Positions 12,720-63,135 of a stretch of 64,000 nt of DNA are shown piece by piece (positions within the stretch are counted from its first letter, which is position 1; every line of letters starts with the position of its first letter). Both the position numbers and the translations under genes were made by a program. Under the pieces are notes generated by a model. That model was given only the letters and a program-made list of their open reading frames with translations, searched no databases and was not told the DNA's origin. This stretch comes from Myxococcales bacterium (GTDB taxonomy: Bacteria; Myxococcota_A; Polyangia; Polyangiales; JADJMO01), in the NCBI GenBank assembly GCA_016709545.1, contig JADJMO010000001.1, positions 68,372 through 132,371 on the forward strand, given 5' to 3'.

Positions 12720-12747
12720 CTCGACGCTCGCCGAAAGGCCGGCGATC

Positions 12748-25234: not shown

Positions 25235-25291
25235 TCGAGTGCCACCCTACTCCACGGGTGTGGGGTCGGGTTTTCAAAGCGAGGGAGCTCC

Positions 25292-30993: not shown

Positions 30994-31001
30994 GGGACCC
31001 T

Positions 31002-33044
31002 CTAGGGCGCGTCCTTCTTCACCATGCCGAGGAGCTTCTTCTGCGCGTCCTTGTCACCGCGGGCGAACCGCTCGACGAGCCCCGCGAGCTCCGGGTCGAG
31101 CGAGCCGTCCTTCACGAAGTCCCGCGCCACGTTGCGCAGGGTGACGCTCTCGCCGAGGGCCGCCTCGACCGATTGCCCGACGCCGATCGCCTTCACGTAG
31201 CGGTCGAAGAACGCGCCGTCGCCGCCCACGATGTTGAACTTCGCGTTGGCCAGCGACTTCCCGAGCACGTCGGCCTGGGCCATCGCCTGCTCCTTGCGGG
31301 CCTTGATGGTCTCGATCGCCACGGTGCGGTCCTTCTCGAGGTTGAGGCGGAACTCCTCGTGTCCGCGCCCGCTCTCGTCGAGGATCCGCATGGCCTCGGC
31401 CTTCTCGCGGATGCCGGTCGCCTCGGCGGTCATCTTCTCGCGCACGACGGAGGCCTCGGCCGCGCCCTGCTTCTGGATCGCGTCGGCCTCGGCCTGGCGC
31501 ACGGCGACCTTGGCGAAGCCCTGCTTCTGCTCGCCCTCGGCGGCGGCGTTCATCTTCTCGAGCGAGACGCGCGCCTCGACGAGGCCCTGCTTCTCGAAGG
31601 CGAGCGCGTCGGCTTCCTTCACCCGCGCGGCGGCGAGGCCCTTCGCGGCCTCCTCGGCCTGCACGCCCTCGGCGAGGCGCACCTTGGCGCGCGCCATCTT
31701 GTCGGCCGTCTCGAGCTCGGCGTCGGAGGTGAGGATCTTCTCGCGCGCCTTGTGCTTGGCGGCTTCCTCGGAGGCCTCGGCGGCCTTCACCAGCTTGACC
31801 ATGCCCTCCTGCGCCTGGGCCTCGGCGGCGAGCCGGACGACCTCCTTCTCGCGGTTGGCCTGCGCGGTCGTGCGCAGATCCTTGATCTGCTCCTCCTCGG
31901 CGGCCACGGTCTTGTCGACGGCGATGCGCGTGCGCACCACGTCGGCGATCTCCTTCTTCTGCTGCTCGAGGTCGCGGTCGCGGGCCAGCACGGCGACCTG
32001 CACCTCGCGCTCGCGCGCCACCGCCTCGAGCTGCCGCGCCTTCTCCACGCGCTCGCTCTCGACGAGGATCTCCCGCTCGCGGTTCTTCTGCGCGATCGAG
32101 ACGCCACGGTTCTTCACCTCGTTGGCGATGAGGGTCTCCTCCTCCACCTTCTGGCGCAGCAAGAGGGTGCGCTTCTGCTCCTCGAGAGCGAGCCGCGTGG
32201 CCTCGTTCTCCTCGCGAATCTTAACGACCGAAATTTCGCGATCCTTCTTGGCCTCGGCCTCGGCCTTGCGCTGCTCGAACCGGAACATCGCCTCGTCGGC
32301 GGTGAGGTTCTGGCTGCCCTTCTCGGTGCGCTCCTTCTGGCGGAGCTCGTTGGTGGCGACGTTCTTCTCCACCGTGAGGGCGGTGATCTTGCGGATGCCC
32401 TCGGAGTCCATGATGTTGTTCGGATCGAGCGCCTCGAGCGGGGTCTGCTCGAGGTAGTCGATCGCCGCGTCGTCGAGGATGAACCCGTTCAGGTCCTTGC
32501 CGATGACGCGGATGATCGCCTCCTTGAACTCCTCGCGCTTGGTGTAGAGCTGCTCGAAGTCGAAGTGCTTGCCGACCGTCTTGAGCGCCTCGGAGAACTT
32601 GGCGTTGAACAGCGCCACCAGGGTGTCCTCGTCGCTCGCCCGCGCGCAGCCAATGGACTGGGCCACCTTGAGCACGTCGTCGGCGGTCTTGTTCACCCGC
32701 ACGAAGAACGTGACGTTGATGTCGGCGCGGATGTTGTCGTTGCAGATCAGGCCCTCTTTTCCGCGGCGATCGATGTCGATCGTCTTGACGGAGAGGTCCA
32801 TCACCTCGGCGCGGTTGACGATCGGCAGCACGAGCCCACCCGTGAAGGTGACGTACGGCTTGTCGTTCCGCGAGGTGTTGATGATCAGCGCCTTGCCTTG
32901 CTCGACCTGACGGTAGAAGCGCGCGAACATCGCGCCGATCCCGAACAGGATGACGACCCCGGCGCCGATGGCGGCAAAGATGGGCAACAACTCGTGCATT
33001 GGAAGCTCGCTCCCCTGGAGGCGCGAGAGGGGTGCGCGGTGCAC
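31002..33044 (-). CDS. Flotillin/SPFH (band 7) family protein, YqiK-like
   Basis: ORF 680 aa. It has an N-terminal TM helix (LLPIFAAIGAGVVILFGIGAMF), an SPFH domain, then a long Ala/Glu/Lys-rich coiled-coil typical of flotillins. An alternative start is the ATG at 32999. Confidence 0.85.
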   Translation of the reverse strand: MHRAPLSRLQGSELPMHELLPIFAAIGAGVVILFGIGAMFARFYRQVEQGKALIINTSRNDKPYVTFTGGLVLPIVNRAEVMDLSVKTIDIDRRGKEGLICNDNIRADINVTFFVRVNKTADDVLKVAQSIGCARASDEDTLVALFNAKFSEALKTVGKHFDFEQLYTKREEFKEAIIRVIGKDLNGFILDDAAIDYLEQTPLEALDPNNIMDSEGIRKITALTVEKNVATNELRQKERTEKGSQNLTADEAMFRFEQRKAEAEAKKDREISVVKIREENEATRLALEEQKRTLLLRQKVEEETLIANEVKNRGVSIAQKNREREILVESERVEKARQLEAVAREREVQVAVLARDRDLEQQKKEIADVVRTRIAVDKTVAAEEEQIKDLRTTAQANREKEVVRLAAEAQAQEGMVKLVKAAEASEEAAKHKAREKILTSDAELETADKMARAKVRLAEGVQAEEAAKGLAAARVKEADALAFEKQGLVEARVSLEKMNAAAEGEQKQGFAKVAVRQAEADAIQKQGAAEASVVREKMTAEATGIREKAEAMRILDESGRGHEEFRLNLEKDRTVAIETIKARKEQAMAQADVLGKSLANAKFNIVGGDGAFFDRYVKAIGVGQSVEAALGESVTLRNVARDFVKDGSLDPELAGLVERFARGDKDAQKKLLGMVKKDAP

Positions 33045-36120: not shown

Positions 36121-36258
36121 CCGGCCGACCGGAGCCGGACGTTCACGGGCGGCCACGGCACAGACATCCTGCCATTGCTGCCATGCGGGCGGCGAAGTAG
36201 CCAAGATCCCTCCCTCCGTTCACCTTCGCGTCGCACGGGCCAGGCACCCTGCGCCGAC

Positions 36259-37110
36259 ATGACGCGCATCGCCCACCTGACCGACCTCCACCTCGTCGAG
36301 CGCCGGCCCGAGGCCCGCTCGTGGCAGGACCGCCTGCGGATCCAGACGATCTCGCAAGGGCGGCCGATCGACTCCGAGCGGCCCCGCCGCCGCCTGCGCC
36401 GGGCCTTCGCGGAGGCCCGCGCCGCGCGGGCCGACCATGTCGTCGTCACCGGTGACCTCACCGAGGACGGCATCCCCGCCCAGTTCGAGGTCCTCGCCGA
36501 GGAGCTCCACGCGGCGCCGTTCGCGCCCGAGCAGATCACCCTGGTGCCCGGGAACCACGATGGCTACACCTCGGGCGACGCCTTCGAGAAGGCGCTCGCC
36601 GGCCCGCTCGCCGCGTTCCGCGTCACGAGCCGCCCGGGCACCGCTGTCGAGCTGAAGGGCGCCACCGTCGTCGCGCTCTCCACCACCATCCACCAGCACT
36701 GGCTGCGCGCGGCCGGAGAGCTCGGCGAGCGGCAGCGTCGTCGCATCCACGACGTGCTGCACGCGCGCGAGCGCCGTGGCGCGACGGTGCTCGCGATGCA
36801 CCACCCACCGTTCACCTTCGGGCTGCGGCTCGGCTGGCTCGAGGGCCTGCTCGACCTCGGCTTCGTGCGCACGATGCTGCGTCCGTTCCGCAGCGCGCAC
36901 GTGCTGTGCGGGCACGTCCACGAGCGCGGTGACCACCGCCTCGGGCCGGCGCGACATGCGCGGCTCCACACCGCGCACTCCGTGGCCGAGGACGACCGCG
37001 CCCTCCGCCTCTACGACGCCATCGACGATCGGCTCGTACCGAGCGACGGTCCCGTGCCGTTCGCGCTCGCCATGCGCGCCTTCCGGCAGTCCGCGCTCGG
37101 AGAAGCCTGA
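36259..37110 (+). CDS. Calcineurin-like metallophosphoesterase
   Basis: MTRIAHLTDLHL..., GDLTEDG, GNHD, HHPP and GHVHER motifs are present. Confidence 0.75.
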   Translation: MTRIAHLTDLHLVERRPEARSWQDRLRIQTISQGRPIDSERPRRRLRRAFAEARAARADHVVVTGDLTEDGIPAQFEVLAEELHAAPFAPEQITLVPGNHDGYTSGDAFEKALAGPLAAFRVTSRPGTAVELKGATVVALSTTIHQHWLRAAGELGERQRRRIHDVLHARERRGATVLAMHHPPFTFGLRLGWLEGLLDLGFVRTMLRPFRSAHVLCGHVHERGDHRLGPARHARLHTAHSVAEDDRALRLYDAIDDRLVPSDGPVPFALAMRAFRQSALGEA

Positions 37111-37111
37111 C

Positions 37112-39646
37112 GTGCAGGCCCTCGGTCGTTACCGGCTCGTCGCGGAGATCGGGCGGGGCGGCATGGCCGAGGTGTTCCTCGCCGTGGCGCAGGGCACCGC
37201 CGGCTTCCAGAAGCTGCTGGTGGTCAAGGCGCTCGCGGAGGGCTCCGAGGACGAACCCGAGCACCTGACGATGTTCCTCGACGAGGCGCGGCTCGCGGCG
37301 CGCATGCACCACCCGCACATCGTGGCCACCCACGAGGTGGGGGAGGACCGGGGGCGCCACTTCCTCGTGATGGAGTGGCTCGACGGGCAGCCGCTGCACA
37401 AGGTGCTCGCGCGCATGCCAGAGGGTGCGCTGCCTCTCCCGCACCGCGTCCGCATCCTGTGCGACACGCTCTCCGCCCTGCACTACGCGCACGAGCTCAC
37501 CGACTTCGACGGCACGCCGCTCGGCATCGTCCACCGCGACGTCAGCCCCCAGAACGTGGTCGTGACCTTCGACGGCACGGTGAAGCTGGTCGACTTCGGC
37601 ATCGCCAAGGCCTCCCTCTCGTCGACGGAGACGCAGGTCGGGATCCTCAAGGGCAAGGTGGCCTACATGGCACCCGAGCAGGCCCGCGGGGAGCGGGTGG
37701 ACCGGCGCGCGGACGTGTTCGCGGTCGGGATGATGCTCTGGGAGGTGCTCGTCGGTCGGCGCATGTGGAAGGGCAAGACCGATCGCGAGATCCTCGAGCA
37801 CGTGTTCCGCGGCGAGATGCCCTCCGTCGAGGAGGCGCGCCCGGACGCCCCGCCGGGACTCGCGAGCATCTGCGCGCGGGCTCTCGCGCTCGACCCGGTA
37901 GACCGCTACCCGACCGCGGCCGCCATGCAGCGGGACCTCGAGAAGGTCCTGCGCGCGCTCGGCCCCTTGCCGGCTTCCGACCTCGGCGACCGGATGCAGG
38001 AGACGTTCGCCGAGATGCGGGCGCGCACGCGCACGGTCATCGAGGAGCGTCTGCGGGGGCTGTCGCCGGACGCGAGCACCTCGATGGTCGCGCCGCTCTC
38101 GCTCCCCAGCACCGCGACCGAGTCGCTCACCTCGGAGGAGGTCACCCGGCCGTCGGTGCCGCGGGCGCTCCGCAACACGGGCCGCACCGGCATCGCCCAG
38201 ATGCTCGAGCCCGTCCCGACACCCAAGCGGCGGCGTCCCGTGTGGCCCTGGGCGGTGGCCGCCGGGCTGTTCGTGCTCGCCCTCCCCACGGGCTGGTACG
38301 CGACGCGCACCCCGCCGACCGTCGCTGGCGCGGTCGAGCGTCCCGTGGCCGCGCTCGGCTCGGCGACGCCGAACACCCCTGCACCGACCACGGCGCCGAC
38401 GGCGACTCCCTCCGGTGCCTGCGGCGCCAAGAACAAGCCGCTCGTCGAGATCAACGGCGACATCGACGGCGACTTCACCCTGTCGTGCGCGAACGACTAC
38501 CTCCTCAAGTTCCTCGTGTTCGTGAAGCCAGGCGCCACGCTCACCATCGAGCCCGGCACGGTGATCCACGGCGACCCCGCCACCAAGGCCACGCTCGTGG
38601 TCCAGCCCGGCGGCAAGATCGTCGCGCGCGGGAAGAAGAACGAGCCCATCGTGTTCACGAGCGCGAAGGCGCCGAGCGAGCGTCGCCCCGGGGACTGGGG
38701 CGGCGTCATCCTGCTCGGCCGCGCGCCGCTCAACCTGCGGGACGAGAAGGGCAAGCCGCAGAAGGGCCGCATCGAGGGCATCACCCAGGGCGGCCTCTAC
38801 GGCGGCGACGACCCCGACGACGACAGCGGCGTGCTCGAGTACGTGCGCATCGAGTACAGCGGCGTGGTGCTCGGCCCGAACAACGAGATCAACGGCCTCA
38901 CCCTCGGCGCCGTCGGGCGCAAGACCGTGCTCGACCACATCCTCGTGCGCCAGACCGCGGACGACTGCTTCGAGTTCTTCGGCGGCACCGTCGACGGCAA
39001 GCACCTGGTCTGCCAGTACGGCGGCGACGATGGCTTCGACTGGGACTATGGCTACCGCGGGCGCCTCCAGTTCCTGTTCCTGCAGCAAGACCCGAGCGTG
39101 GTCGACGACACCAACGGGTTCGAGGGCGACAACGACCCGGCCGGCAGCGCCAACGAGCCGCGCAGCGAGCCCACGATCTGGAACGCCACGCTCTGCGGGA
39201 TGAACAAGGACGCGTCCAAGGAGCAGTACGGGATGCTGTTCCGCAGGGGAACTCGCGGTCACGTCTGGAACACGATCGTCACCGGCTTCGAGGCCGGGCT
39301 CGACGTCCGCGACAAGTCGACGAGGGTCGAGGTGCGGAGCTCGATCTTCTTCAAGAACCCGATCGCCCACGTGGAGAAGCCCGGCCCGTTCGACGACGAC
39401 GACGGGTTCGACGAGGTCGCCTTCGTGCTCGAACCTTCACGAAAGAACCTGGTCATGGACCCGAAGATTCCTGGTTGTTTCGACCCGACGCACCCGCGCC
39501 CGGCACCGCTCGTGAGCATTACTGCCAATGCTGCCACGCCTCCTGCCGACGGCTTCTTCGACCCGAAGGCCGCGTACGTCAGCGCCTTCCGCGACGAGAA
39601 GGACGACTGGGCCACGGGCGAGTGGATCGCCTGGGGATCGCGCTGA
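37112..39646 (+). CDS. Hanks-type Ser/Thr protein kinase with one TM helix and a large extracellular beta-helix-like domain
   Basis: GTG start 1 nt after the upstream stop. Kinase motifs are GRGGMAEVF, VVK, HRDVSPQNV, DFG and APE. The TM helix is WAVAAGLFVLALP. The approximately 430 aa C-terminal domain has GDWGGVILLG...DDCFEFFGG...DDGFDWDYGYRGRLQFL. Confidence 0.85.
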   Translation: MQALGRYRLVAEIGRGGMAEVFLAVAQGTAGFQKLLVVKALAEGSEDEPEHLTMFLDEARLAARMHHPHIVATHEVGEDRGRHFLVMEWLDGQPLHKVLARMPEGALPLPHRVRILCDTLSALHYAHELTDFDGTPLGIVHRDVSPQNVVVTFDGTVKLVDFGIAKASLSSTETQVGILKGKVAYMAPEQARGERVDRRADVFAVGMMLWEVLVGRRMWKGKTDREILEHVFRGEMPSVEEARPDAPPGLASICARALALDPVDRYPTAAAMQRDLEKVLRALGPLPASDLGDRMQETFAEMRARTRTVIEERLRGLSPDASTSMVAPLSLPSTATESLTSEEVTRPSVPRALRNTGRTGIAQMLEPVPTPKRRRPVWPWAVAAGLFVLALPTGWYATRTPPTVAGAVERPVAALGSATPNTPAPTTAPTATPSGACGAKNKPLVEINGDIDGDFTLSCANDYLLKFLVFVKPGATLTIEPGTVIHGDPATKATLVVQPGGKIVARGKKNEPIVFTSAKAPSERRPGDWGGVILLGRAPLNLRDEKGKPQKGRIEGITQGGLYGGDDPDDDSGVLEYVRIEYSGVVLGPNNEINGLTLGAVGRKTVLDHILVRQTADDCFEFFGGTVDGKHLVCQYGGDDGFDWDYGYRGRLQFLFLQQDPSVVDDTNGFEGDNDPAGSANEPRSEPTIWNATLCGMNKDASKEQYGMLFRRGTRGHVWNTIVTGFEAGLDVRDKSTRVEVRSSIFFKNPIAHVEKPGPFDDDDGFDEVAFVLEPSRKNLVMDPKIPGCFDPTHPRPAPLVSITANAATPPADGFFDPKAAYVSAFRDEKDDWATGEWIAWGSR

Positions 39647-40762: not shown

Positions 40763-42868
40763 TCACTCCACGGCGCAGAAGCGCACCGAGCAACCGTCGA
40801 CCAGGAGCCCCGTCGCGGGCTCGAGCAGCGTGCCGTCGAGCAGGTCGCGGACGTGGTGGATCCCCTCGGCCTGCACGACCACGCGCTGGCGCTTCGGGCT
40901 CGGGTTGATCACGAACAACACGCGGGGAGAGCCGCCCGCGTCGTGGTGCACCGTGGCGCCGCACGGGCTCTCGGCGACGTGGACGCGCGGCACGTCTCCG
41001 ATGAGATCGCGGACGTGGTGCCGGACCACGGCGACGTCGAGCGCGTCGTCGCCGACGAGCACCGGCACGTCGGGCAGGCCGCGGCGGGTCTTCGGCGAGA
41101 GCGGCAAGAAGTGGTCGTCGCGTCGCGGTGGCGCGGGCGCGAACGACACGTGGGCGCCCGCCGCGAGCGAGCCGTGCAGCGCGGAGACGAGCTCGGCGCC
41201 GACGCCGCACGAGGTCGGCACGAGGATCCAGCGCGCGCCCTTCAGCGAGGCCACCGGGTCTCCGCCGTCGGCGAGCGCCCAGGGAATGCCCTCTTCCTCG
41301 AGCGCGCGCTCGGCCGTGACGAGGATGCGCGCGGTGCGGAACGGCGGCGCCTCCAGGTGGCCCTCGCCGAAGTCGACGTCGTCCTCCACCACCGTCTCGC
41401 GCACGCCGCCGCCGAGCATGCGGAAGAGGGTCTGCGAGGCGGGCCCGAAGGCGTGCATGATGCGCGCGAGGCGCCGCATGCCGCGGGGCGCGATCAGGCG
41501 CGCAGGCGCGTGGCGCACGAGCTCGGGGAAGCGCACCCGGTCCATGGCGGCGGAGAGGTCCGCGAAGAACGAGGCGAACGGGCGCACGTGGCCGTGACGG
41601 TCGACGGGCGCGCCGAGCCAGCGATCGCGGTCGACCGCCATGTAGAGGTTGAAGCCGCGCAGGCCGTAGGCGAGGGCCGTGAGCAGCGTGAAGCGCGCGT
41701 CGCGCTCGTCGAGCGGCGGGACGTAGGGCGGGGCGCCCGCGCCCATCTCGGCGCCGAACGCGGGCACGCCGAGGCCGTCGCTCGTCGCCGCGAGCTCGGT
41801 CGTGCGCCGCAGGATGGCGCGGTGGTCGCCGGCCTGGTGGTAGTAGTCGAGCGCGACGAGATCGATGCCGCCCTCGAGGCGGATGCGCGCGGGGTGGAGC
41901 GGCGTGGCCGACTCCGCGGGCGGCAGGTTGTGGAACGTGGGGACGGTGAGCCCGCCCTCGACGAGTGCGCGGCGCATGCGCGAGAACGCGCGCGCCAGCA
42001 TGGACTCCTGCGCGGCCACCCAGTCGAGGTGGCGCGGGAGATCGTCGGCGTCGCGCGCGTCGTAGCGCACGGGCGGCAGCGCGTCGTCGAACCCGACCTG
42101 CGGCGTGCCGTGGGCGCGGGCGAGCGCCTCTCGGTTCTTGTAGCGCGCGCGCAGGAGCTCCCGGTACTGGGTGATGGCGTCGGGGTGGTAGTCCTGGTCG
42201 TAGGCGCCGTCGCGGAAGTACATCGCGCCTTCGTTGTCGATCTGCGCGAGCACGATCGGGCCCTCGGGCCAGACGAGGGGCTCGAGCTGCGCGGCGACCT
42301 CGGCGAGCCACGTCTCTGCCTCGCGCAGGAACGCCTCGCTCGCGTACGACGGCACCGGGAACGCGCGCGGTGCTACCGGCAGGAGCACGGGGTTGCCGCG
42401 CGGGCTCCGCGCCTGGCAGTCGGGCGACCACACGATGCGCTCGGGGAGGCCGAAGTCGGTGAGCTCGGCGTTGATGTGTGGACCGGGCCGCACGATGGCG
42501 TGCAGGCCGAGCGCCTGCGCCTCGCGCAGGAACGCGCGCACGTCGTGGCGACCCTCCCAGTGGTAGCGCGGCGGCTCGCCCTCGCCGCCCGACTCGTGCA
42601 CCTGCCACGGGATGTAGGTCTCGACGAAGCGGAACCCCATCGAGACGAGCGACTGCAGCGCGGGGCGCCACGCGGAAGGCTCGAGGCGGAAGTAGTGCAC
42701 GGCCCCGGCGCGCAGCGGCAGGGTCTCGGGCTCGCCCTCGCGCGGGTGCAAGCGGATGCCCTCGCGACACAGCTCGATGCGCGGGCGGACCGGCAGCTTC
42801 TCCACGGCGACCTTGGCAAGCTTCTTGGTCGCTTTGCGCGCGCGGCTCGGAGTCTTGGGCTTCACCAT
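40763..42868 (-). CDS. Glycoside hydrolase family 35-like beta-galactosidase
   Basis: ORF 701 aa. It has FVETYIPWQVHE...HAIVRPGPHINAELTDFGLPERIV (GH35-like catalytic region) and a Lys-rich N-terminus. Confidence 0.65.
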   Translation of the reverse strand: MVKPKTPSRARKATKKLAKVAVEKLPVRPRIELCREGIRLHPREGEPETLPLRAGAVHYFRLEPSAWRPALQSLVSMGFRFVETYIPWQVHESGGEGEPPRYHWEGRHDVRAFLREAQALGLHAIVRPGPHINAELTDFGLPERIVWSPDCQARSPRGNPVLLPVAPRAFPVPSYASEAFLREAETWLAEVAAQLEPLVWPEGPIVLAQIDNEGAMYFRDGAYDQDYHPDAITQYRELLRARYKNREALARAHGTPQVGFDDALPPVRYDARDADDLPRHLDWVAAQESMLARAFSRMRRALVEGGLTVPTFHNLPPAESATPLHPARIRLEGGIDLVALDYYHQAGDHRAILRRTTELAATSDGLGVPAFGAEMGAGAPPYVPPLDERDARFTLLTALAYGLRGFNLYMAVDRDRWLGAPVDRHGHVRPFASFFADLSAAMDRVRFPELVRHAPARLIAPRGMRRLARIMHAFGPASQTLFRMLGGGVRETVVEDDVDFGEGHLEAPPFRTARILVTAERALEEEGIPWALADGGDPVASLKGARWILVPTSCGVGAELVSALHGSLAAGAHVSFAPAPPRRDDHFLPLSPKTRRGLPDVPVLVGDDALDVAVVRHHVRDLIGDVPRVHVAESPCGATVHHDAGGSPRVLFVINPSPKRQRVVVQAEGIHHVRDLLDGTLLEPATGLLVDGCSVRFCAVE

Positions 42869-45913: not shown

Positions 45914-47180
45914 ATGCCGCGACGGTTGCGTCTACTCCCCCTGCTGCTGGTCGCGGCGTGCGGAGAGGGCCCGTCGGCGCGAGAGAGCGTCTTCGTGAAC
46001 GCGATGGTGCGCGCCGACCTCCCGCTCCTGCGCTCACGCCCGCAGCTCGTGGCCGGCAAGTACCGGCAGATGAAGACCGCGCTGTTCCAGTTCCACCGCG
46101 GGGTGCTGCCGGTCTACCTGACCGACGCGCGCGACGCGGCGTTGCCAATCGGTCGCTCGCGGTTCGCGCTCGATCTGCCGCTCGTCGTCGGCATGGGCGA
46201 TCCCCACCCCGAGAACGTGGGCGTGCTCTTCGACCGCAACGGCGTCCCGCGCATCGAGCCGAACGATCTCGACGGGGTCGAGCTCGTGCCCTACCTGCGT
46301 GATCTGCGGCGCCTCCTGGTCGGGGTGGCCATCGCCTCGGTGTCGACCAACGCGGCCGATCCGGTCCGGGCCGCCGAGGTGGCGGCGCGCACCAGAGACA
46401 TCATCAAGGCCTGTGCCGAGGGCTATCGCACCGCCATCTTCGAGTACGCGGGCGGCGCGGCCCCCGAGGTGATCGACACCGGCAAGGGCGTCCCGAACCT
46501 CGAAGATCTCTTCAAGCGCGGGAAGAAGGACTACGCGTCGCGCGACGAGCTCGCGGGGCTCACCGTGCTCGAGGGCACGACGCGTCGGCTGAAGGACGCG
46601 GAGCTCGGTGAGGTCATCGATCCGACGGAGCCCGCGAGCGCGCTGCGCACCCTCCCGAAGGTGGCGCTGGAGGCGTTGCCCGACACGCTGGAGCGCTACC
46701 GCCGCGGGCTCACCGACCCGCCGCCGCCCGAGTTCTTCCGGGTGCTCGACGCCAAGCGCGAGCTCGGCTCCGGCGTCGCGTCGTGGCCGCGCATCCGTGT
46801 CCTCGTGCTCGTGCGCGGGCCCACCGACGCTCCCGGGGACGACGTCGTCCTCGAGCTCAAGGAGCTCGCCGACGCCAGCACCTCGACCACCACCTGGCCG
46901 ACCCAGCACTTCCGCAGCGTCGAGGCGCGGATCGAGTTCGCCAAGCTCAAGGTGTGGTCCGTACCGGCGGCCGACGGCCTGTGGGGCACCTCGCGCTGGC
47001 TCGGGCTCCCCGTGCAGATCCGGACCGAGTCGGAGGGCAACAAGACCCTGCGCGTCGCGCGCATGACCGGCACCAATGGCACGGTCGACGCGATGCTCGC
47101 CACCGCCCGGTTCCTCGGCCGCATGCTGGCGCGCACGCACGCGAGTCCAGCAGGGGAGCTCCCCCCCTCCTGGCCCCTGA
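45914..47180 (+). CDS. DUF2252 family lipoprotein; the stop is apparently lost through a C7 homopolymer indel at 47161-47167, giving read-through into the next gene
   Basis: Lipobox LLVAAC and the GDPHPENVG motif typical of DUF2252. The track shows a 771 aa fusion. Removing one C gives ...AGELPPPGP* ending at about 47180. Confidence 0.55.
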
Positions 47181-47191
47181 TCGGAGCACCC

Positions 47192-48229: not shown

Positions 48230-48250
48230 TCACCGCAAGGAGTCCGTCAC

Positions 48251-48871: not shown

Positions 48872-48892
48872 CCACGGTGCTACACGGCAGGG

Positions 48893-49843: not shown

Positions 49844-49852
49844 TCTGAGGGC

Positions 49853-51748
49853 GTGCGCTGGCCCCTCCTTGGTTGTCTGATCCTCCTCGGTTGCGCGGGC
49901 GGCGACGCCGAACCATCCGAGCCCGTCGACGAGACCGGCGCCGAGACGAGCGGCGATGCCACGCTCGACGGCGACGCCGACGCGTCCGACACGGGCGACA
50001 CGGCCAAGCCCGATGCCGACGCGGCCGAGGCGCCTGTCGACGCGCCGCCACCACTCGTGACCGAGTCGCTGGTCGGCGCCGACGTGCCGGCCGCGCGCGT
50101 CGGGATGTTCTACCTCGTGTGGCACGCGCCAGCGGTCACCGCGCTCCGCACGGTCGCCAGCAAGGGCGGCGCGCAGCTCACCCTCGAGGACGTGATCCGC
50201 GGCAAGGGCGCCTACGCCGACGTCCTCACCAAGTGGGGCGCCGAGGCCGAGGCGATGGCGTTCTACTACCACGCCCGCCCGAAGCTCGGCTTCTACTGCC
50301 TCTACCGCGCGCGCGCTGGCGAGACGGGCCACGTGCCCGACTGCCTCGACATCGAGAAGACCGCGGCCACGCACGCCGAGCAGCTGCTCGCGGCCGGCGT
50401 CGACCACGTGGTGATCGACGCGACCAACCTCACCGGGATGGATCGCGCCGGCGACCTCCTGCAGCTGCGCCCCACCGAGGTGCTGTTCGAGGAGTGGGCC
50501 AAGCTCCGCAAGGCCGGCAAGAAGACCCCGCAGATCGCCGTCTGGCACGCCATCCCGACCGGCTCGACCCAGTGGAAGGGCTACCAGGCGATCTACCAGA
50601 ACGCCGCCTACGACGGCCTGGTGATGCGCGACAAGAAGTCGAACAAGAAGGTGTTCTTCGTCGTGGATCCACCCGACGCGGGGCGCTTCCCCGACGCGGG
50701 CATCCTCGGCCAGGTGCAGAGCAACGGCGGCAAGAACGACGTGATCGTCCAGCGCATGTGGACGATCGGCAAGACCGACCCCGGCGTCGATCGGTGGGCG
50801 TTCATGAGCTACTGCCAGGCCGGCGGCAAGGACACCACCAGCATCGTCGGCGCCGGCGCGTGCAACCAGCCCTACACGGCGAAGAGCGCGCTCGGCACCG
50901 CGATCGCCGTCGCCCCGAGCTTCCAGACCAGCTACGCGAGCCTCCCGTTCTCCGCGGCCGGCAAGCTCTCGGGGCTTACCTTCGCGCGGCAGTGGGAGAC
51001 CGCGTTCGCCGTGCGCCCCGACTACGTGTTCGTGAGCGGGTGGAACGAGTTCACCGCCCAGCCGCAGCCGAACCCGTTCGCGGGGGACCCGTTCGCGAGG
51101 AGCATAGACCTCGAGCGTGACAGCAATGGCAGCAACCTGTTCGTGGACACCTACGGCATGGAGTTCGGCCGCGACATCGAGCCCACCGAGGAGTACGGCA
51201 GCACCTACTACGACCTGACCCGGGCCTGCGCGAAGCGCTGGAAAGCCGGCGCCAAGGACTGCGGCGACGCCAGCGACCCGTGCTGCGCGCCGCTGTCGGC
51301 GAACGAGTGGGCGCACGTGTTCGTCCTGAACAACGCGGGGGCCAAGGACTGGCTCCTGACGGTGTCGCCCACCGAGAAGAGCGCGCTCGTCGGCAGCGGG
51401 TGGCGCGAGGCGTGCGGGCGCTACGGCACGCCTTCGGTCTCGTGCGTGCGCGCGGACGAGCCGCTCTCGCCGGCCGGACCGTTCCTCGCGTGGACGAAGC
51501 CCGGCGCGGGCCGCAAGCCGCTCCACCGGTGCCTCGCCGGGACCGCGCACTTCTACAGCCTCGACCCGGGGTGCGAGGGCCAGAAGACCGAGGCGGTGCT
51601 GGTCTACGTGGCGGAGTCGCCGACGGGCGAGACCCCGCGCAGGGCCACGCGTTGCTACCGCGCCTCGACGGGGGAGCACTTCGTGGCGCTCGGCGCGGGG
51701 TGCCCGAGCGGGGTCACGGAGGAGGGGATCCTCGGGTACGTGCGCTAG
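49853..51748 (+). CDS. Hypothetical secreted lipoprotein (631 aa), possible carbohydrate-active enzyme
   Basis: GTG start with lipobox LILLGCAGG and an acidic linker. It is Trp/Tyr/Cys-rich. Confidence 0.55.
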   Translation: MRWPLLGCLILLGCAGGDAEPSEPVDETGAETSGDATLDGDADASDTGDTAKPDADAAEAPVDAPPPLVTESLVGADVPAARVGMFYLVWHAPAVTALRTVASKGGAQLTLEDVIRGKGAYADVLTKWGAEAEAMAFYYHARPKLGFYCLYRARAGETGHVPDCLDIEKTAATHAEQLLAAGVDHVVIDATNLTGMDRAGDLLQLRPTEVLFEEWAKLRKAGKKTPQIAVWHAIPTGSTQWKGYQAIYQNAAYDGLVMRDKKSNKKVFFVVDPPDAGRFPDAGILGQVQSNGGKNDVIVQRMWTIGKTDPGVDRWAFMSYCQAGGKDTTSIVGAGACNQPYTAKSALGTAIAVAPSFQTSYASLPFSAAGKLSGLTFARQWETAFAVRPDYVFVSGWNEFTAQPQPNPFAGDPFARSIDLERDSNGSNLFVDTYGMEFGRDIEPTEEYGSTYYDLTRACAKRWKAGAKDCGDASDPCCAPLSANEWAHVFVLNNAGAKDWLLTVSPTEKSALVGSGWREACGRYGTPSVSCVRADEPLSPAGPFLAWTKPGAGRKPLHRCLAGTAHFYSLDPGCEGQKTEAVLVYVAESPTGETPRRATRCYRASTGEHFVALGAGCPSGVTEEGILGYVR

Positions 51749-52345
51749 TCGTTGTCGACGTAGCGCAGCACGCAGAAGCGGCCGCCGCGTTCCACGATGG
51801 CGAAGAGGCCGGTGACGTCGACGGGTTTGCCCTCGAGCGTCGCCTCGACGACCGGCTTCTGGTGGAGGGTCACGGCGCCGCGCGGGGAGGGGGTGGCTCG
51901 GACCTTCACGAACAGGAACTTCTTCCCTCCGAAGCGGCGCAGCACCTTGGGTCGGTCCTTGCGCGACGAGTTCGAGAGGTTGTCCCAGGCCCACTGCACG
52001 CCCATGGACCCGATGAGGGGCTCGCCGGCCTTCACGAACTCGGGATAGAGCAGCGCCGCGTACTCGAGCGGTTTGGGCTCGAGAGCGAGTAGTGCCTTGT
52101 CGTCGTTGGTGGCGAGCGCCGCGAGGTAGGCCTTGCCGACGTCGTCGAGCGACTGGCGGGGCGTGTCGAGGTCGGCCGGGAGAGGCACCGACGCGCTGGG
52201 AGGGAGGGCTGACGCTGGTGGGCACGCTCGGCGCGACGCTCGCGCTGTTCGACGGGAGCGGCTTCGTCGGCGCGGGTGCGGGTTCGGGCTGGCGGTCGCA
52301 GCCGACCAGCAGGAGCGCAAGGATCGAGCGGCGCATGGTCCTCAC
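51745..52345 (-). CDS. Hypothetical lipoprotein with an apparent frameshift near 52205-52230
   Basis: The signal MRRSILALLLVGC is in one frame (the start of track ORF 48230..52345). The domain ...LPADLDTPRQSLDDVGKAYLAALATNDDKALLALEP...VLRYVDND* is in ORF 51745..52320. Confidence 0.45.
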
Positions 52346-52400: not shown

Positions 52401-53922
52401 TCACTTGAAGGTGGTCCAGCCCTCGAACTCGGGGCAGGTCGTGCCGCACGCGCCGATGATGTCCTTCGCCGACTTGTCGAAGAACGCGTCGGTCGGCTCC
52501 GCGCCGCCGGTCAGCGCGGGGCTGCCCGCCTGGAGCGAGAAGTTCGGCCCCGTCGACTTGGTGTCGGTGATCTTCACGTCGGCGACCTTGGTCTTCGAGA
52601 TCTTGCGGCTCGCGTCGTCGATGTAGGTCTGCGAGAAGGTCGAGTTCGCGTCCTTCGTCGTGCCCGAGATGATGCTGTTCTTGACGACGAGGGAGCCGTC
52701 GGTCGCGTTCTTCTCCGCGCCGGTGCCCGGGAGGGCGGCGCCCGCGGAGTCGACGTTCGGCTGGATGAAGATGCCCGAGAGCGGCCAGCCGACGGCGAGG
52801 ATGTTGCTCCAGGTGCCCTTGGTGTTGCGGCGCAGGTGGAAGCCGTGCCCACCCTCGGTGGTCGCCGTGGCCTTGCCGATCATCGTGGCGTTCCAGATCA
52901 TCGGCTGCGTGAACGGGGCGTTGTCGGACGCGTTGGCGTCGTTGTCCACCTCGAAGCCGTTGCCGCCGCCGTCGATGTCGTCGCGGTTGCAGACGAGGAA
53001 CTGCAGCTTGCCGCGGTAGCCGTTGTCCATGTCGAAGCAGTCGTCGGCGCCCGACTGCGCGAGCAGGTACTTCGCGTTCGCCGCGCCGCCGAACCACTCG
53101 AACGAGTCGTCGAAGCCCTGGTAGGCCTCGAGGTGGTCGAGCTGGGTGCCGCTGCCGACGCCGTAGAACGAGAAGGCGTTGATCTCGTTGCCCACGCTGA
53201 GCTGGTAGCCGGCCCACTCGACGCGGGTGTAGTGGAGCTCGCCGCTCGAGTCCGCGTCGTCGCGGTCGGCGCCGTTGCCGCCGTACTTGAACTGGTCCTT
53301 CGCGGAGAGGCCCTCGGGGGTGGTGACGGCGGCGTGGTTCGACTTGGCCTTGCCGAGGATCATGAGGCCGGCCCAGTCGCCGCGCTTCTTCGACGTCTCG
53401 CTGCTGGTCATCACGACCGGCTGGTCCTTGGTCCCCATCGAGGCGATCTTCCCGCCCGGGAGGACGGCGATGCCGGTGATGGAGGCCTCGCCGGTGCCAG
53501 TGCCGCGCGTGCCCTTCACCACGGTGCCAGCCGTGATGGTGAGCTTCGCGCCCGGCTTGACCTCGACGAACTTCTTGAGCGTGTAGACCTTGCTGCAGTC
53601 CCAGGTGGTGTCCGCGGTGATGTCCGCCGTGACGTCGACCGGGGTCGGGCTCGCGGGGCAGCCGGGGCGGCGCGTCGCCATCGGGCGTGCCGGTGTCGAC
53701 GGCCCCGGTGTCGATCGGCGAGCCGGTGTCAGCGCCGGTGTCGACCGTGCCGGTGTCAGCCGGGGCCGGCTTGTCCGGCGTCGAGTCGTCACCGCAACCG
53801 GCGATCCCGAGAGTGATGGCGCCGCAGGCGACGAGGGCGACGAGGGCAGTCGACGGACGAACGGTCTTCATGGGAATCCTCCTCAGGATCAGAGTCGTGC
53901 TTGGCTGGTCGGCGTTGTGCAC
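52401..53922 (-). CDS. Lipoprotein with a beta-helix-like domain paralogous to the Ser/Thr kinase ectodomain; apparent frameshift in a C4 run near 53666
   Basis: Signal MKTVRPSTALVALVACGAITLGIAGC followed by DTG repeats (frame of ORF 52393..53922). The domain is in ORF 52401..53792: GDWAGLMILG...DDSFEWFGG...DDCFDMDNGYRGKLQFLV. Confidence 0.6.
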
Positions 53923-56961: not shown

Positions 56962-57390
56962 CTACGACTTCGGCTTCACGGTCAGGACGGCGATCGGCGC
57001 CGCGCCCCCCGCGCGGGCCACGTCCATCGCCTCCACCGCGGCGCCGAACGGGGCGTCTTCTTCCGCGGTGAAGAACAGCGTGTGGTCGCCGTTCTTGGCG
57101 GCGAACACGCGCTTGAGCTTCTCCTTGAGCTGATCCTTCGCGATCGGCTCGTTGTTCAGCTTCACGACCCCCGCCTTGTCGACCGAGAGGACGACGGGCT
57201 TGGCGTTGGGGTCGGGCTTGGCCTCCTTCTTCTCCTCGTTCTTCGGGAGGTTCACCCAGAACTGCTTGGTGAGCAGCGGCGTGACGACCATGAAGATGAT
57301 GAGGAGGACGAGCACCACGTCGACCAGCGGCGTGATGTTCATCGCCGGCCGGACCTTGGCCTTCTTGGGGCCGCCGATGTCGATGCCCAT
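56962..57390 (-). CDS. exbD: ExbD/TolR family biopolymer transport protein
   Basis: AMNITPLVDVVLVLLIIFMVV. Confidence 0.85.
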   Translation of the reverse strand: MGIDIGGPKKAKVRPAMNITPLVDVVLVLLIIFMVVTPLLTKQFWVNLPKNEEKKEAKPDPNAKPVVLSVDKAGVVKLNNEPIAKDQLKEKLKRVFAAKNGDHTLFFTAEEDAPFGAAVEAMDVARAGGAAPIAVLTVKPKS

Positions 57391-57391
57391 C

Positions 57392-57874
57392 TCAGTTCCC
57401 TCCCGGCTTGGGGAGCTTGGCCCACTGGGCGCCGCTCGCGCCCTCGGGCTTCTCGCTGACCATGAGCGCGACCCCCTGGAAGCCGACCTTCTGGATCAGA
57501 TCGAACAGCTCGCGCATCTTGCCGAACGTGTTGCGGTAGTCGCCCTTGAGGATGATGCGGCGGTCGGGGTGGGCGGCGTGCTCGCGCTCGAGGCGCGCCT
57601 TGAACGAGGCGGCGTCGGCGAACGACTCCTTCTCGTAGAAGTACCTCCCCGAGAGCGTGTAGGTGAGCACCACCGGATCGAGCTTGCTCTTGGCCTTGGG
57701 GTCCGGGTTGAAGATGGTCGGGAGCTCGACCGCCTCTCCGGCCTCGAGCTGCGGGGTCACCACCATGAAGATGATGAGGAGCACCAGCACCACGTCGACC
57801 AGCGGCGTGATGTTGATGTCCGGGGCAGCCCCCCGCTTCTTCTTGCCCTTGCTCGCTTCGACGCTGACGCCCAC
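57392..57874 (-). CDS. exbD: ExbD/TolR family protein (second paralog)
   Basis: GTG start. DINITPLVDVVLVLLIIFMVVTP. There is a 1 nt gap to the downstream exbD. Confidence 0.85.
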   Translation of the reverse strand: MGVSVEASKGKKKRGAAPDINITPLVDVVLVLLIIFMVVTPQLEAGEAVELPTIFNPDPKAKSKLDPVVLTYTLSGRYFYEKESFADAASFKARLEREHAAHPDRRIILKGDYRNTFGKMRELFDLIQKVGFQGVALMVSEKPEGASGAQWAKLPKPGGN

Positions 57875-57900: not shown

Positions 57901-58614
57901 TCAGGCGGCCGCGCGGCCGGAGTCGACCGCGGCGTCGTCGTCGCGGTGGTTGCGCTCGACCTCGTCGAGGAACTCGCCGTTGGCGTTGGTGAGATCGAGC
58001 TCGATGGCCTCGACCTTGCCGTTGAGCCAGTTGAAGAAGCCCACGGAGGGGATGGCGACGATGAGGCCGAAGGCGGTCTCGATGAGCGCCTCGGCGATGC
58101 CCGCGCTGACCGCGCCGAGGCCGGCCGAGCCGCTCGCGCCGATCTTGGCGAACGCGCCGAGGATGCCGAGCACCGTGCCGAGCAGCCCGACGAACGGGGC
58201 CAGCGAGCCGACCGAGGCGAGGAGCGACATGCCGCGGCGGAGCTCGAGGCTGATCACCTCGGCCCGGCGCGCCATCTCGCGCTTGGCGGCCTCGATGGGG
58301 CCCAGGTTGTCGTGGCCGGGGCTGATGGTGTGGTCGAGGTACTTGGCCGCGCCCGCGTGGACGAGGCGCGCGAGCGGGCTCGTCGGGTGCGCGGCGGCCA
58401 GCTTGGCGACGCCCTCGATGTCGTGCTTGGCGAGGACCGCGCGCACCTTCTCGGCGAACAGCTTCGACTCCGCGCTCGTGCGGGTGAGGAAGAGCAGCCG
58501 CTCGATGACCACGCCGATCGCCCCGAGCGCCATCAGCGCGAGGCAGCTCGCGACGACGCGCGAGAGAAACGGCATGTCCTTCCAGATGTGGACGAGATTC
58601 AGCTCCATCTTCAT
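57901..58614 (-). CDS. exbB: ExbB/TolQ/MotA family proton channel
   Basis: ORF 237 aa with 3 TM helices and LGTVLGILGAF. Confidence 0.85.
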   Translation of the reverse strand: MKMELNLVHIWKDMPFLSRVVASCLALMALGAIGVVIERLLFLTRTSAESKLFAEKVRAVLAKHDIEGVAKLAAAHPTSPLARLVHAGAAKYLDHTISPGHDNLGPIEAAKREMARRAEVISLELRRGMSLLASVGSLAPFVGLLGTVLGILGAFAKIGASGSAGLGAVSAGIAEALIETAFGLIVAIPSVGFFNWLNGKVEAIELDLTNANGEFLDEVERNHRDDDAAVDSGRAAA

Positions 58615-58627
58615 TGCTCCTGGCGAA

Positions 58628-59433
58628 TCACTGAGTCTTGATCGTGAACGGGATCTTCCGCACGATCGTGGTCTTGAACGCGGTGCCGTCTTCGTGCTTG
58701 GCGGGGGTGAACTTCCACTTCTTCACCGTCTCCAGCACCACGGCGTCGAACGTCGGGTCGCTCTTGACGATCTTCACGTCGGTGACGTCCCCGTTCTCGT
58801 CGATGGTGATGCGCACGGTCACCGCGCCGGTCGTGCCCGCGGCGCGTGCGGCCTCGGGGTAGGGCGGCTTCACGTAGCCGGTGAGCTTCGGCGGCACGTC
58901 CGTCTCCGAGACCAGCGTGGCCTTCGGGGGCGGCGGCGGCGGGGGTGGGGTCGTGGCCGTCGGCGGGGCGGGGGAGGTGGAGGCGTGGTCGCGATGGCGG
59001 CGGTGGCCGTTCCCGTGCCGCCGGCGGCGCCGCCCGGATCTCCCGAGTGCGAGCCCCCCGCGATGCCCTTGTCCTTGGAAGGGTCGGCCTCGTCGAGCTT
59101 GTCCTTGGGGATCTCCGTCGGCACCGGCGGCGGGGGCGGCGGCGGTTCGCTGCTCACCTTCACGCTCTCCGGCACGAGGACCGGCGCGGCCGCGGGGGGC
59201 TCGGGCTCCTTGGGCTTCTCGGGCTCCTTCTCCTCCGGGATCTCCTCGACGAACTTCACGTCGGTGAGGTCCTCGAGCTTGGGCGGAGGCGGCGCCTTGG
59301 CGTTCACCCGCTGGCCCACCGCTGCGATGCCCACGAGGATGCACGCGCCGGCGGCGACGCACTGGGAGAGCCGCAGCCGGTACGCCGCGTTCACCGTCTT
59401 TTCGACGAAGGCCTCGAATGCCACGGCGCGCAA
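58628..59433 (-). CDS. tonB: TonB-like energy transducer with an apparent -1 frameshift in a C4 run near 58966
   Basis: The N-terminus plus TM (CVAAGACILVGIAAVG) plus Pro-rich region is ORF 58870..59433. The TonB C-terminal domain (PYPEAARAAGTTGAVTVRITIDENGDVTDVKIV...) is ORF 58628..59362. Confidence 0.65.
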
Positions 59434-59609
59434 GAAACCACGACCAAGTGACGCGACCGCATCACGATTGCGACGATTGAGTGACCGCGCGGGCTCCGGG
59501 ACGGATCTCGCGCGCGGCTCACTCGTTCGTCACCCGCGCGTCACTTCCCACAGTGCGCCCCGACACCCATCGCGGGGACATACTGCCAACCACTGCCACG
59601 GTCGAGGTG

Positions 59610-60314
59610 TCAGTTGCTCTCGGGCTCGTCGGGCGTGCCGACGAACCGGTACCCGATGCCGCGCACGGTGCGGATGTAGCTCGCGGCGGCGCCCAGCTTC
59701 TCGCGGAGGCGCTTGACGTGGGTGTCGACCGTGCGGCTGTCGAGCCGCGCCGACAGCTGCCACACGTCGACCAGCAGCATGTCGCGGCTCTGGGTGCGGT
59801 TGCGCCGCTCGAGCAGGGTGGTGAGGAGCCGGAACTCGAGGGCGGTGAGGTGCACCTCTTGCTCCTCGACGAACACCCGGTGGGCGCCCCGGTCGACCCG
59901 CAGCACGCCGAACTCGATCTGGTCCTCGCGCATGGGCGGGGGCTCGGTGCGTCGCAGGATGCTGCGGACCCGCAGCACGAGCTCGCGCACGGCGAACGGC
60001 TTGACGAGGTAGTCGTCCGCGCCGAGCTCGAGGCCGACGATGCGATCGACCTCCTCGCTGCGCGCGGAGGCGATCAGCACGGGCAGGTCACGGAGGGGGC
60101 CCTGCGCCCGGATCCAACGGCAGACGTCGAGGCCGCTGCCGTCGGGCAGCATGAGGTCGAGGATGACGAGGTCGTAGCGACGGGCGCCGAGCTCGTGACG
60201 GGCGCCGGCCACGGTGTCGACGCGGGCCGTCTCGAAGCCGTCGGCCCGGAGGTTGTAGGACATCACGCTCGCGAGGTCCTGCTCGTCCTCCACGATGAGT
60301 ACGCGGGGAGCCAT
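59610..60314 (-). CDS. OmpR/PhoB-family response regulator (REC plus winged-helix)
   Basis: RVLIVEDEQDL...DLVILDLMLPDGSG...TVRGIGYRF. Confidence 0.85.
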   Translation of the reverse strand: MAPRVLIVEDEQDLASVMSYNLRADGFETARVDTVAGARHELGARRYDLVILDLMLPDGSGLDVCRWIRAQGPLRDLPVLIASARSEEVDRIVGLELGADDYLVKPFAVRELVLRVRSILRRTEPPPMREDQIEFGVLRVDRGAHRVFVEEQEVHLTALEFRLLTTLLERRNRTQSRDMLLVDVWQLSARLDSRTVDTHVKRLREKLGAAASYIRTVRGIGYRFVGTPDEPESN

Positions 60315-60584
60315 GAGGCGACCCTATGCGTACGCAGTGACGCAGGCGTGACGATGGCGCCAACTTCCCGCAAGAGGTGACAGGCAGGCCACGAAAGGAC
60401 GACACCATTCCGGTCACCTGAACGGCTGACCCTCGCGTTCCAGGCGGGCCCCTCGACGGCCAGGTCGACCCCGTGCTATGGGCCGCCCCGCACGCGAGGC
60501 GTGCTGAAGCGTCTGCACCCCTATTTCCAAGGGTGAGGCGGCCAACCCCTCGAGCTTTCGCCGGTCCATTTCCCGCGTTTCTCC

Positions 60585-60600: not shown

Positions 60601-63135
<2,535 letters not shown>

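Follow-up and report, generated by a model that had tools for sequence, protein, structure and literature searches.

The window analyzed here is a 64,000-nucleotide stretch of contig JADJMO010000001.1 (positions 68,372 to 132,371, forward strand; GenBank assembly GCA_016709545.1) from a Myxococcales bacterium. It encodes two proteins that share a beta-helix module of ~400 residues, namely a transmembrane Hanks-type Ser/Thr kinase, which carries the module at its C terminus, and, 13 kb away, a lipoprotein belonging to a TonB-dependent transporter cluster (Table 1). The kinase gene begins with a GTG codon at 37112, leaving a gap of 1 nt to the gene upstream, and its start and length are backed by P0241, a database protein of 844 aa with 99% identity. 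That upstream gene, for a calcineurin-like phosphoesterase, is probably cotranscribed with it, and the same gene order is present in L007, the locus of a 61% orthologue. The N-terminal part of the kinase matches Pkinase (PF00069, aa 7-273, E=2.4e-37, 129.2 bits versus a cut-off of 31.7) and displays the features of Hanks kinases (glycine loop, catalytic Lys, HRD, DFG and APE), read in the translation as GRGGMAEVF, VVKAL, HRDVSPQN, DFGIAK and MAPEQ. Within the catalytic loop HRDVSPQN (aa ~140-147), Ser replaces the Lys usual in Hanks kinases; this Ser, as HRDVSPQN or HRDVSPHN, is common to P0038 and the unfused Sorangium relatives described below, the related kinases whose loop was seen. Residues ~373-396 form the sole candidate membrane span, preceded by KRRR and followed by a Pro/Thr/Ala-rich linker, and this transmembrane helix stands in place of a lipoprotein signal or lipobox. 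Because the kinase domain is cytoplasmic, positive charges precede the single span and a cysteine pair is conserved in the ectodomain, we predict the C-terminal part to be periplasmic.

The second module-bearing gene lies in a minus-strand cluster with the order PhoB-like regulator, TonB, ExbB, two ExbD, transporter, lipoprotein and 191-aa gene. The best NCBIfam match of the regulator is TIGR02154 (PhoB, 228.7 bits). The transporter has the Pfam set PF13620/PF13715, PF07715 and PF14905, and its best NCBIfam match, TIGR01782 (Xanthomonas/Caulobacter type), scores 261 bits and does not reach the cut-off of 310. An earlier description of this receptor as Oar-like stands for the domain architecture only (CarboxypepD_reg, Plug, barrel): the likeness to Oar of Myxococcus xanthus is one of architecture, an N-terminal carboxypeptidase-regulatory-like domain before plug and barrel, whereas the window transporter belongs to a subtype that pairs with Beta_helix_4 lipoproteins across phyla. 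We know of no Beta_helix_4 partner of Oar.

The lipoprotein had been placed at 52401-53922 as the last gene of the operon. The gene instead starts at ATG 53871, after a GGAGG ribosome-binding site, and is frameshifted as assembled: the signal peptide with lipobox, MKTVRPSTALVALVACGAITLGIAGC, and the beta-helix domain (52401-53792, minus strand) are read in different frames. The split is explained by a C-run that is C4 in the window and C6 in L091. Nor does the lipoprotein gene end the operon, as a conserved 191-aa gene comes after it. In that gene too, the lipoprotein signal, MRRSILALLLVGC, which begins at ATG 52336, and the conserved body are in separate frames, the frame changing in a C-rich run at ~52198-52208; the L001 orthologue is intact. 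Because the two frameshifts fall in adjacent genes and both in C-rich runs, they are more readily taken for errors of sequencing or assembly than for real mutations, although both lipoprotein genes may alternatively be decaying. Genes for ~197-199 aa also come after the Beta_helix_4 gene in L001 (5011-5610) and L002 (9565-10158). The 191-aa protein has no Pfam family; it aligns weakly (19-27% identity, common motifs) with a ~200-aa protein of Acidobacteriota and Gemmatimonadota that is encoded at the same position after the Beta_helix_4 gene in L023, L027, L034, L074 and L080. The ~190-200-aa protein may be a third component of the transporter-lipoprotein system.

Table 1 Features of the window and Pho-box-like repeats in related loci.
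Feature	Position	Strand	Basis or remark
Calcineurin-like phosphoesterase (Metallophos) gene, directly upstream of kinase	36175..37110	+	PF00149, E=1.7e-14
Transmembrane Hanks-type Ser/Thr kinase gene	37112..39646	+	844 aa; Pfam Pkinase match
Cytoplasmic kinase domain, aa 7-273	37130..37930	+	Pfam and motifs in translation
Predicted transmembrane segment, aa ~373-396, RRRPVWPWAVAAGLFVLALPTGWYATR	38228..38299	+	Read from translation
Predicted periplasmic Beta_helix_4 (PF28492) sensor domain, aa ~441-844	38432..39643	+	Alignment, profile, model (pLDDT 94.4)
Conserved ~190-aa (191-aa) gene after lipoprotein, frameshifted as assembled	51745..52320	-	Orthologues in L001, L002
Beta_helix_4 lipoprotein gene, frameshifted as assembled	52401..53871	-	P0121 98% identical, intact, 490 aa
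C-run, 2 bases short in the window (C4 versus C6)	53664-53667	-	DNA alignment with L091 (encodes P0121)
TonB-dependent transporter, CarboxypepD_reg + Plug + OMP_b-brl_3, 970 aa	53983..56895	-	Pfam
ExbD	56962..57390	-	PF02472
Second ExbD	57392..57874	-	PF02472
ExbB	57901..58614	-	PF01618
TonB	58628..59362	-	NCBIfam TIGR01352 (TonB C-terminal domain), E=3.9e-19
Three phased direct repeats GTGAC-N6-GTGAC-N6-GTGAG, between regulator and TonB genes	59518..59544	-	
OmpR-family response regulator heading the cluster	59610..60314	-	Pfam Response_reg + Trans_reg_C
Second repeat GTGAC-N6-GTGAC, between regulator and divergent H+-pyrophosphatase genes	60337..60352	+	
Membrane H+-translocating pyrophosphatase gene	60601-63135	+	Divergent from regulator gene
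TamB-like and Omp85/POTRA proteins	8184-16116	+	No link to the finding
GH123-like hydrolase	16246-18870	-	No link to the finding
PAS-rich hybrid histidine kinase	22217-25246	-	No link to the finding
1857-aa DUF3686/AAA ATPase	25480-31053	-	No link to the finding
GH35 beta-galactosidase-like protein	40763-42868	-	No link to the finding
Repeat upstream of TonB and of second Beta_helix_4 gene	L002 2145-2160, 11942-11968		
Repeat 57 bp upstream of pstS	L009 7115-7141		Coding strand CTGTCAC-CAAA-CTGTCAC
Repeat upstream of sister-clade lipoprotein operon	L012 4648-4663		
Repeat upstream of kinase fusion	L013 4674-4689		

Both window proteins carry one homologous beta-helix domain of ~400 residues, PF28492 (Beta_helix_4). 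Comparison of the 844-aa kinase with the domain frame of the lipoprotein by BLASTP with compositional adjustment gave E=3e-64, with 35% identity over 444 columns and 39% over a 333-column core. The alignment contains, in order in both proteins, the motifs KPGA.LTI, GDWGG/GDWAG, DDxFE.FGG, DDxFD.D.GYRG.LQFL and IWNAT, as well as a cysteine pair near the N terminus of the domain. AlphaFold models of the kinase ectodomain and the lipoprotein each show a right-handed parallel beta-helix (pLDDT 94). The original prediction, that the two are paralogous, share their quoted motifs in the same order and form a beta-helical module, was thus borne out. PF28492 appears in the precomputed Pfam annotation of P0241, of P0121 and of all listed homologues, and a profile built from PF28492 proteins scored the kinase at 568 bits and the lipoprotein at 520 bits; in the window, a search with the family profile returned these two copies only. 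Our own Pfam and NCBIfam scans of the ~400-residue ectodomain were without a match, in the case of Pfam because the version searched predates PF28492. A chance or compositional resemblance, for which the Pro/Thr/Ala-rich linkers and the 70% G+C genome might be held responsible, is ruled out by the compositionally adjusted E value, by family scores above 500 bits for both proteins and by the same high-confidence fold.

The family is large. Among 1.84 billion cluster representatives (50% identity), the profile found 23,538 at E<=1e-3 and 5,313 at E<=1e-30. Typical members are lipoproteins or, in Bacteroidota, proteins anchored through type IX secretion (T9SS). Many of the best-scoring matches contain two to five module stretches per protein, with 14 in one case. 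Tandem modules of two to five copies per protein were seen in loci L017, L018, L019 and L054 and in proteins P0360-P0509, and Ignavibacteriota and Bacteroidota loci have a double-length Beta_helix_4 gene after the transporter. Relatives by fold are pectate and alginate lyases, epimerases, polygalacturonases and tailspike depolymerases, and NosD scores equally. A profile search of Protein Data Bank (PDB) sequences gave no meaningful match, the best being a mitoribosomal protein at E=0.07.

For the genomic context of the family, we surveyed 80 loci, one genome per species, from Bacteroidota, Ignavibacteriota, Acidobacteriota, Gemmatimonadota, Myxococcota and others, and searched them for the transporter subtype with a profile built from four transporters. 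The transporter lay immediately upstream of the Beta_helix_4 gene on the same strand in 62 of the 80 loci and immediately downstream in two; four loci were kinase fusions, five had no transporter and seven were too short to tell. Adjacency thus holds for 64 of 69 assessable nonkinase loci across many phyla, from which we conclude that the module is the obligate partner of one transporter subtype. L001 and L002 have the gene order ExbB, ExbD, ExbD, transporter, Beta_helix_4 and ~197-aa gene, and the same transporter-lipoprotein pair occurs in Dyadobacter (Bacteroidota, L005). In the window, a same-strand neighbor with PF07715, PF13715/PF13620 and PF14905 is present for the lipoprotein, not for the kinase gene. 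The window lipoprotein is, therefore, a canonical transporter-linked Beta_helix_4 member, and the proposal that the module sits both on a transmembrane kinase and on a lipoprotein associated with a TonB receptor is confirmed, the association extending to the surveyed loci.

The pairing of lipoprotein and transporter is already known from one preprint and two papers, and the domain already has a Pfam family. In Bacteroides thetaiotaomicron, BT4055 is a transporter for which BT4056 is listed as a putative lid, the two genes staying close together in 621 genera; BT4056 shares 40% identity with Fjoh_0546, is related to ElpS and, at the time, had no Pfam family (10.1101/2023.03.17.533168). As in the window, the pair consists of a non-SusC transporter and, after it on the same strand, a lipoprotein of the pectin lyase superfamily, and this in hundreds of genera across phyla, but the preprint treats lipoprotein lids only, without a kinase-fused form or the transporter-less lipoproteins of Polyangia. 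Three related lipoproteins of Flavobacterium johnsoniae, FI, FII and FIII (Fjoh_3856, Fjoh_0546 and Fjoh_4889), are induced only by phosphate depletion, rank among the most abundant exoproteins, have a pectin-lyase-like fold and were related by the authors to ElpS; FII follows a low-phosphate-induced transporter (PF07715, PF13715, PF14905) in a phoBR operon (PMC8115612). The window transporter has the Pfam set of the FII transporter and likewise a PhoB-like regulator upstream; FI-FIII differ in having no kinase fusion and were compared with the window proteins by description, not by sequence. ElpS (CC_0170) of Caulobacter crescentus is a ~50-kDa lipoprotein made under phosphate starvation and anchored at the cell surface; its overexpression raises extracellular phosphatase activity, but ElpS itself is not a phosphatase (PMC2996285). 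It is encoded beside a TonB-dependent receptor (10.1101/2023.03.17.533168). The window lipoprotein resembles it, again by description only, in size, lipobox, transporter adjacency and an operon with Pho-like regulatory features, whereas ElpS has type II secretion (T2SS)-dependent release and no kinase fusion; no T2SS genes were seen among the annotated open reading frames of the window. Because it agrees with these proteins in fold, size and lipobox, in the subtype of the transporter, in its spread across taxa and in its phosphate context, Beta_helix_4 is likely the family of ElpS, BT4056 and Flavobacterium FI-FIII, that is, of phosphate-starvation lipoproteins proposed as transporter lids.

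Such lids are familiar from SusC/SusD, BtuB/BtuG and XusA/XusB, in which a TonB-dependent transporter is likewise combined with an adjacently encoded surface lipoprotein that captures the substrate. The folds of SusD (tetratricopeptide, TPR-like) and BtuG (beta-propeller) are unrelated to the window beta-helix, and to our knowledge no lid of the SusD, BtuG or XusB type serves as a kinase sensor domain. Hanks-type receptor kinases with extracytoplasmic sensors include PknB, with PASTA repeats, and Mycobacterium tuberculosis PknD, with a beta-propeller and a gene beside pstS. The window kinase resembles them in its order of N-terminal cytoplasmic kinase, single transmembrane helix and C-terminal extracytoplasmic domain, and the neighborhood of PknD is likewise one of phosphate transport; it differs in the loop HRDVSPQN and in its sensor, a ~400-residue parallel beta-helix of a transporter-lid family.

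Clustering of the neighbors around Beta_helix_4 genes revealed no universal partner besides the transporter, while pst or two-component genes were present in 22 of 61 transporter-containing loci. Recurrent neighbors were PstS-family binding proteins (10 loci), PstC/A and PstB, and pairs of OmpR-type regulator and histidine kinase (~20 loci) with best NCBIfam matches to PhoB and PnpS/PhoR. Melioribacter L051, for instance, has the order transporter, Beta_helix_4, unknown gene, PstS, PstC, PstA and PstB, and in the Gemmatimonadaceae metagenome-assembled genome (MAG) L066 the transporter-lipoprotein pair is followed by PhoB-like, PhoR-like and PstS genes. These neighbors bear on the idea that the ligand is an acidic carbohydrate, such as a pectic, alginate-like or phosphorylated glycan, and that the association with phosphate loci is secondary. 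The pectin-lyase-like fold, the TIGR01782 assignment of the transporter, the glycoside hydrolase genes (GH35 and GH123) in the window and the suggestion by Lidbury et al. that the Flavobacterium lipoproteins bind plant glycans (PMC8115612) would fit this idea. We nevertheless consider it distinctly unlikely: no carbohydrate-active enzyme is conserved beside the transporter-lipoprotein pair in the surveyed loci, where the recurrent genes are pst and PhoBR-like two-component genes, and the Flavobacterium and Caulobacter members are induced specifically by phosphate limitation (PMC8115612, PMC2996285).

Reading the intergenic regions revealed a further candidate link to phosphate, a GTGAC/GTCAC-N6 repeat. 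GTGAC-N6-GTGAC, with a period of 11 bp, has two exact matches in the window against 0.27 expected, and seven in 237 kb against 0.85 ± 0.86 expected in Markov simulations. The repeat is confined to Polyangia loci, and each copy lies just upstream of a relevant gene, among them a TonB gene, Beta_helix_4 genes, a kinase fusion and pstS. The pstS copy is the one we take to be equivalent to the Escherichia coli Pho-box consensus; a scan of the window with the E. coli consensus itself, CTGTCAT-N4-CTGTCAT, found nothing relevant at <=3 mismatches. In the window, the H+-pyrophosphatase and regulator genes share an intergenic region bearing the repeat. As its orientation is not uniform, we call the motif 'Pho-box-like' and regard it as a candidate Pho box for the class Polyangia.

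A search with the full-length kinase recovered ~68 cluster representatives that span both domains (Pkinase and PF28492) at 42-99% identity, from Polyangiaceae, Nannocystaceae (including Plesiocystis and Pseudenhygromyxa) and unclassified myxobacterial MAGs. In a midpoint-rooted neighbor-joining tree of 298 beta-helix domains, all 64 fusions formed one clade together with eight N-terminally truncated sequences, most of them from contigs <3.5 kb. The sister clade comprises 49 lipoproteins of ~500 aa from Polyangiaceae and Sorangium, which, like the kinases, have no adjacent transporter (L004, L012 and L092). Next out are 59 Polyangia lipoproteins that are transporter-linked in Polyangia loci (L011, L014 and L015), whereas the window lipoprotein falls into the other half of the tree with P0121-P0135 and Bacteroidota proteins, also transporter-linked. 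Since the fused copies make up one clade across the class Polyangia, a single old fusion is indicated; the kinase and the lipoprotein, being on different deep branches, appear to be old paralogues.

This topology bears on the functional claim of the original prediction, that the kinase senses the substrate or cargo handled by the TonB, transporter and lipoprotein system 13 kb away, which can be read as a dedicated pair working in one circuit. The kinase and the lipoprotein are the sole copies of the module in the window, their conserved residues are common to both, the gene before the kinase encodes a phosphoesterase, and the TonB cluster has a PhoB-like regulator at its head. At only 38% identity, however, the kinase ectodomain is more distant from this lipoprotein than from others (55-65% identity), and its sister group consists of transporter-less lipoproteins. 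None of nine related kinase loci has a transporter or receptor gene beside the kinase, or any universal neighbor; the lipoprotein orthologue loci L001 and L002 have no kinase; and the lipoprotein gene is frameshifted as assembled. Given the separate deep branches and the transporter-free kinase loci, sensing of the same cargo is unsupported and a dedicated circuit improbable; we infer that the two genes are old, distant paralogues rather than a dedicated sensor-transporter pair.

The ligand class, as opposed to the cargo, may nonetheless be shared, because the kinase clade retains on average 98% of 64 columns that are >=93% conserved in 226 nonkinase members. Retained residues are, in kinase numbering, E555, R579, E581, E592, N594, D617, D618, E621, D639, D640, D643, D645, E671, D673 and R711. 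DDxFE (aa 617-621) and DDxFD (aa 639-643) lie 22 residues apart and each open a short strand in the model, with NGFExDN one coil after DDxFD. From this spacing and these strand-start positions, the acidic residues would stack as one stripe, or ladder, on successive coils. Its near-invariance across phyla suggests that one common chemical feature is recognized, and it is plausible on sequence grounds that the kinase binds the same chemical ligand class as the family lipoproteins.

The same residues could point to catalysis. The module would then be an enzyme that acts on a surface polymer, for instance a new phosphoesterase or a lyase or hydrolase of polysaccharides, with the kinase copy catalytic or substrate-trapping. 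It has the fold of the lyases, epimerases, polygalacturonases and depolymerases named above, ~18 of its charged or polar residues hardly vary between phyla (DDxFE, DDxFD and FExDND on successive coils among them), a pattern seen more often in catalytic or metal sites than in variable pockets for ligands, and ElpS overexpression increases phosphatase activity outside the cell. Yet ElpS showed no phosphatase activity when purified or immunoprecipitated (PMC2996285), solved enzymes are only ~6-16% identical with no catalytic motif matched, and the nonenzymatic NosD fits the fold equally well. NosD, the periplasmic beta-helix of the NosDFY ABC complex (PDB 7o0y), is itself set apart from the window proteins by 11% identity, another transporter type and the absence of a lipid anchor. 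The strict pairing with a transporter also fits a capture role, and we regard an enzymatic module as unlikely.

Three kinase loci, the window included, have phosphate-related surroundings. L007 contains PAP2, Metallophos, Porin_O_P (phosphate-selective porin) and purple acid phosphatase genes, with a tandem one-mismatch copy of the GTGAC-N6-GTGAC motif in the promoter region of the phosphatase, and in L009 phytase-like, PstS and PstC genes come after the kinase. The fusion and its apparent phosphate context were undescribed in the literature searched.

In two Sorangium genomes (L004 8001-11240 and L092 4107-7497), a sister-clade lipoprotein gene adjoins that of an unfused ~563-aa kinase. Up to and including the juxtamembrane region, this kinase shares 50-53% identity with the window kinase, and it is the orthologue (71-75% identity) of P0337, the sole Sorangium kinase among the top 120 matches of the window kinase. 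The arrangement looks like a split version of the fusion, a reading limited by the two loci not being independent of each other and by the very large number of Ser/Thr kinases in these myxobacterial genomes. In the Polyangiaceae MAG L012 (3131-7233), a more distant kinase is encoded divergently from the sister-clade lipoprotein operon. Such neighborhoods of transporter-less lipoproteins and unfused kinases hint at lipoprotein-kinase partnerships and would suit a module that serves as a protein-docking surface, by which the lipoprotein attaches to its transporter and the kinase to a periplasmic or outer-membrane partner whose state it reports. AlphaFold-Multimer likewise places BT4056 on the outer face of BT4055, but with few high-confidence contacts (10.1101/2023.03.17.533168). 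As conservation marks out a single acidic stripe, not a variable interface, and no partner is conserved beside the kinase fusions, we judge it very improbable that the module is mainly a docking surface.

The account we favor, and hold to be reasonably probable as a whole, combines three elements: Beta_helix_4 is a family of phosphate-starvation lids, the kinase ectodomain binds the same ligand class, and the two window genes are distant paralogues. Under phosphate limitation, the lipoprotein would supply its transporter with a scarce ligand caught at the cell surface. Once the ligand has entered the periplasm, the beta-helix of the kinase would bind the same ligand class there, and occupancy would switch the kinase, leading to Ser/Thr phosphorylation of cytoplasmic targets. 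The ligand would most likely be a phosphorus-containing or metal-bridged anionic compound; our guess is a metal-bridged phosphoryl or similar group.

Several observations weigh against this account. The regulator scores below the curated PhoB cut-off (296.2 bits), with CreB nearly equal, and the repeat at pstS is oriented differently, with respect to the gene that follows, from the remaining copies. The window kinase has no upstream Pho-box-like motif, even at one mismatch. Phosphate-related neighbors occur at only three kinase loci (the window, L007 and L009), with no phosphorus-related neighbors at L003, L008/L088, L010, L013, L089 and L090. The tree, built by neighbor joining and rooted at its midpoint, carries no support values. 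The equation with ElpS, BT4056 and FII is drawn from fold, size, gene and phosphate context and taxonomic breadth, not from an alignment, and ElpS is without phosphatase activity (PMC2996285). Finally, the lipoproteins are thought to be surface-exposed and the kinase ectodomain periplasmic, so the same ligand would be needed in two compartments.

Elsewhere in the window, a plus-strand run of secreted protein and lipoprotein genes (45914-51748) converges with the TonB cluster. It encodes a 771-aa DUF2252 protein, a lamin-tail-domain lipoprotein (48251-48871) and two family-less proteins of 316 and 631 aa, the latter encoded where L001 has an unannotated gene of 635 aa. The C-terminal half of the DUF2252 protein (47150-48226), considered as a phosphate porin, had no Pfam match. 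The long overlapping plus-strand frames at 8184-16116 were considered as a third frameshifted gene and rejected, as they are separate TamB-like and Omp85/POTRA genes.

In Caulobacter and Flavobacterium starved of phosphate, few proteins are as strongly induced and as abundant as the lipoproteins of the ElpS, BT4056 and FII type, which by our count accompany a transporter in most loci across many phyla. The conserved fusion to a receptor kinase argues that the core job of the module is ligand recognition, and it offers a signaling read-out for finding that ligand. A bolder and, in our view, rather doubtful extension is that Polyangia turned the surface lid of a phosphate-scavenging transporter into a periplasmic, PhoR-independent Ser/Thr kinase sensor that reads the imported compound. 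If so, Sorangium would keep the unfused partnership, with the sister-clade lipoprotein beside the orthologous kinase, and the members of the whole ElpS/BT4056 family would be receptors whose ligand binds at one conserved acidic site, probably through a metal bridge. The Pho-box-like motif would offer a first way into the Pho regulon of Polyangia. Myxobacterial Ser/Thr kinases number in the hundreds, and most have no known input; the fusion gives one kinase family a testable input, and phosphorus scavenging is its likely physiological setting.

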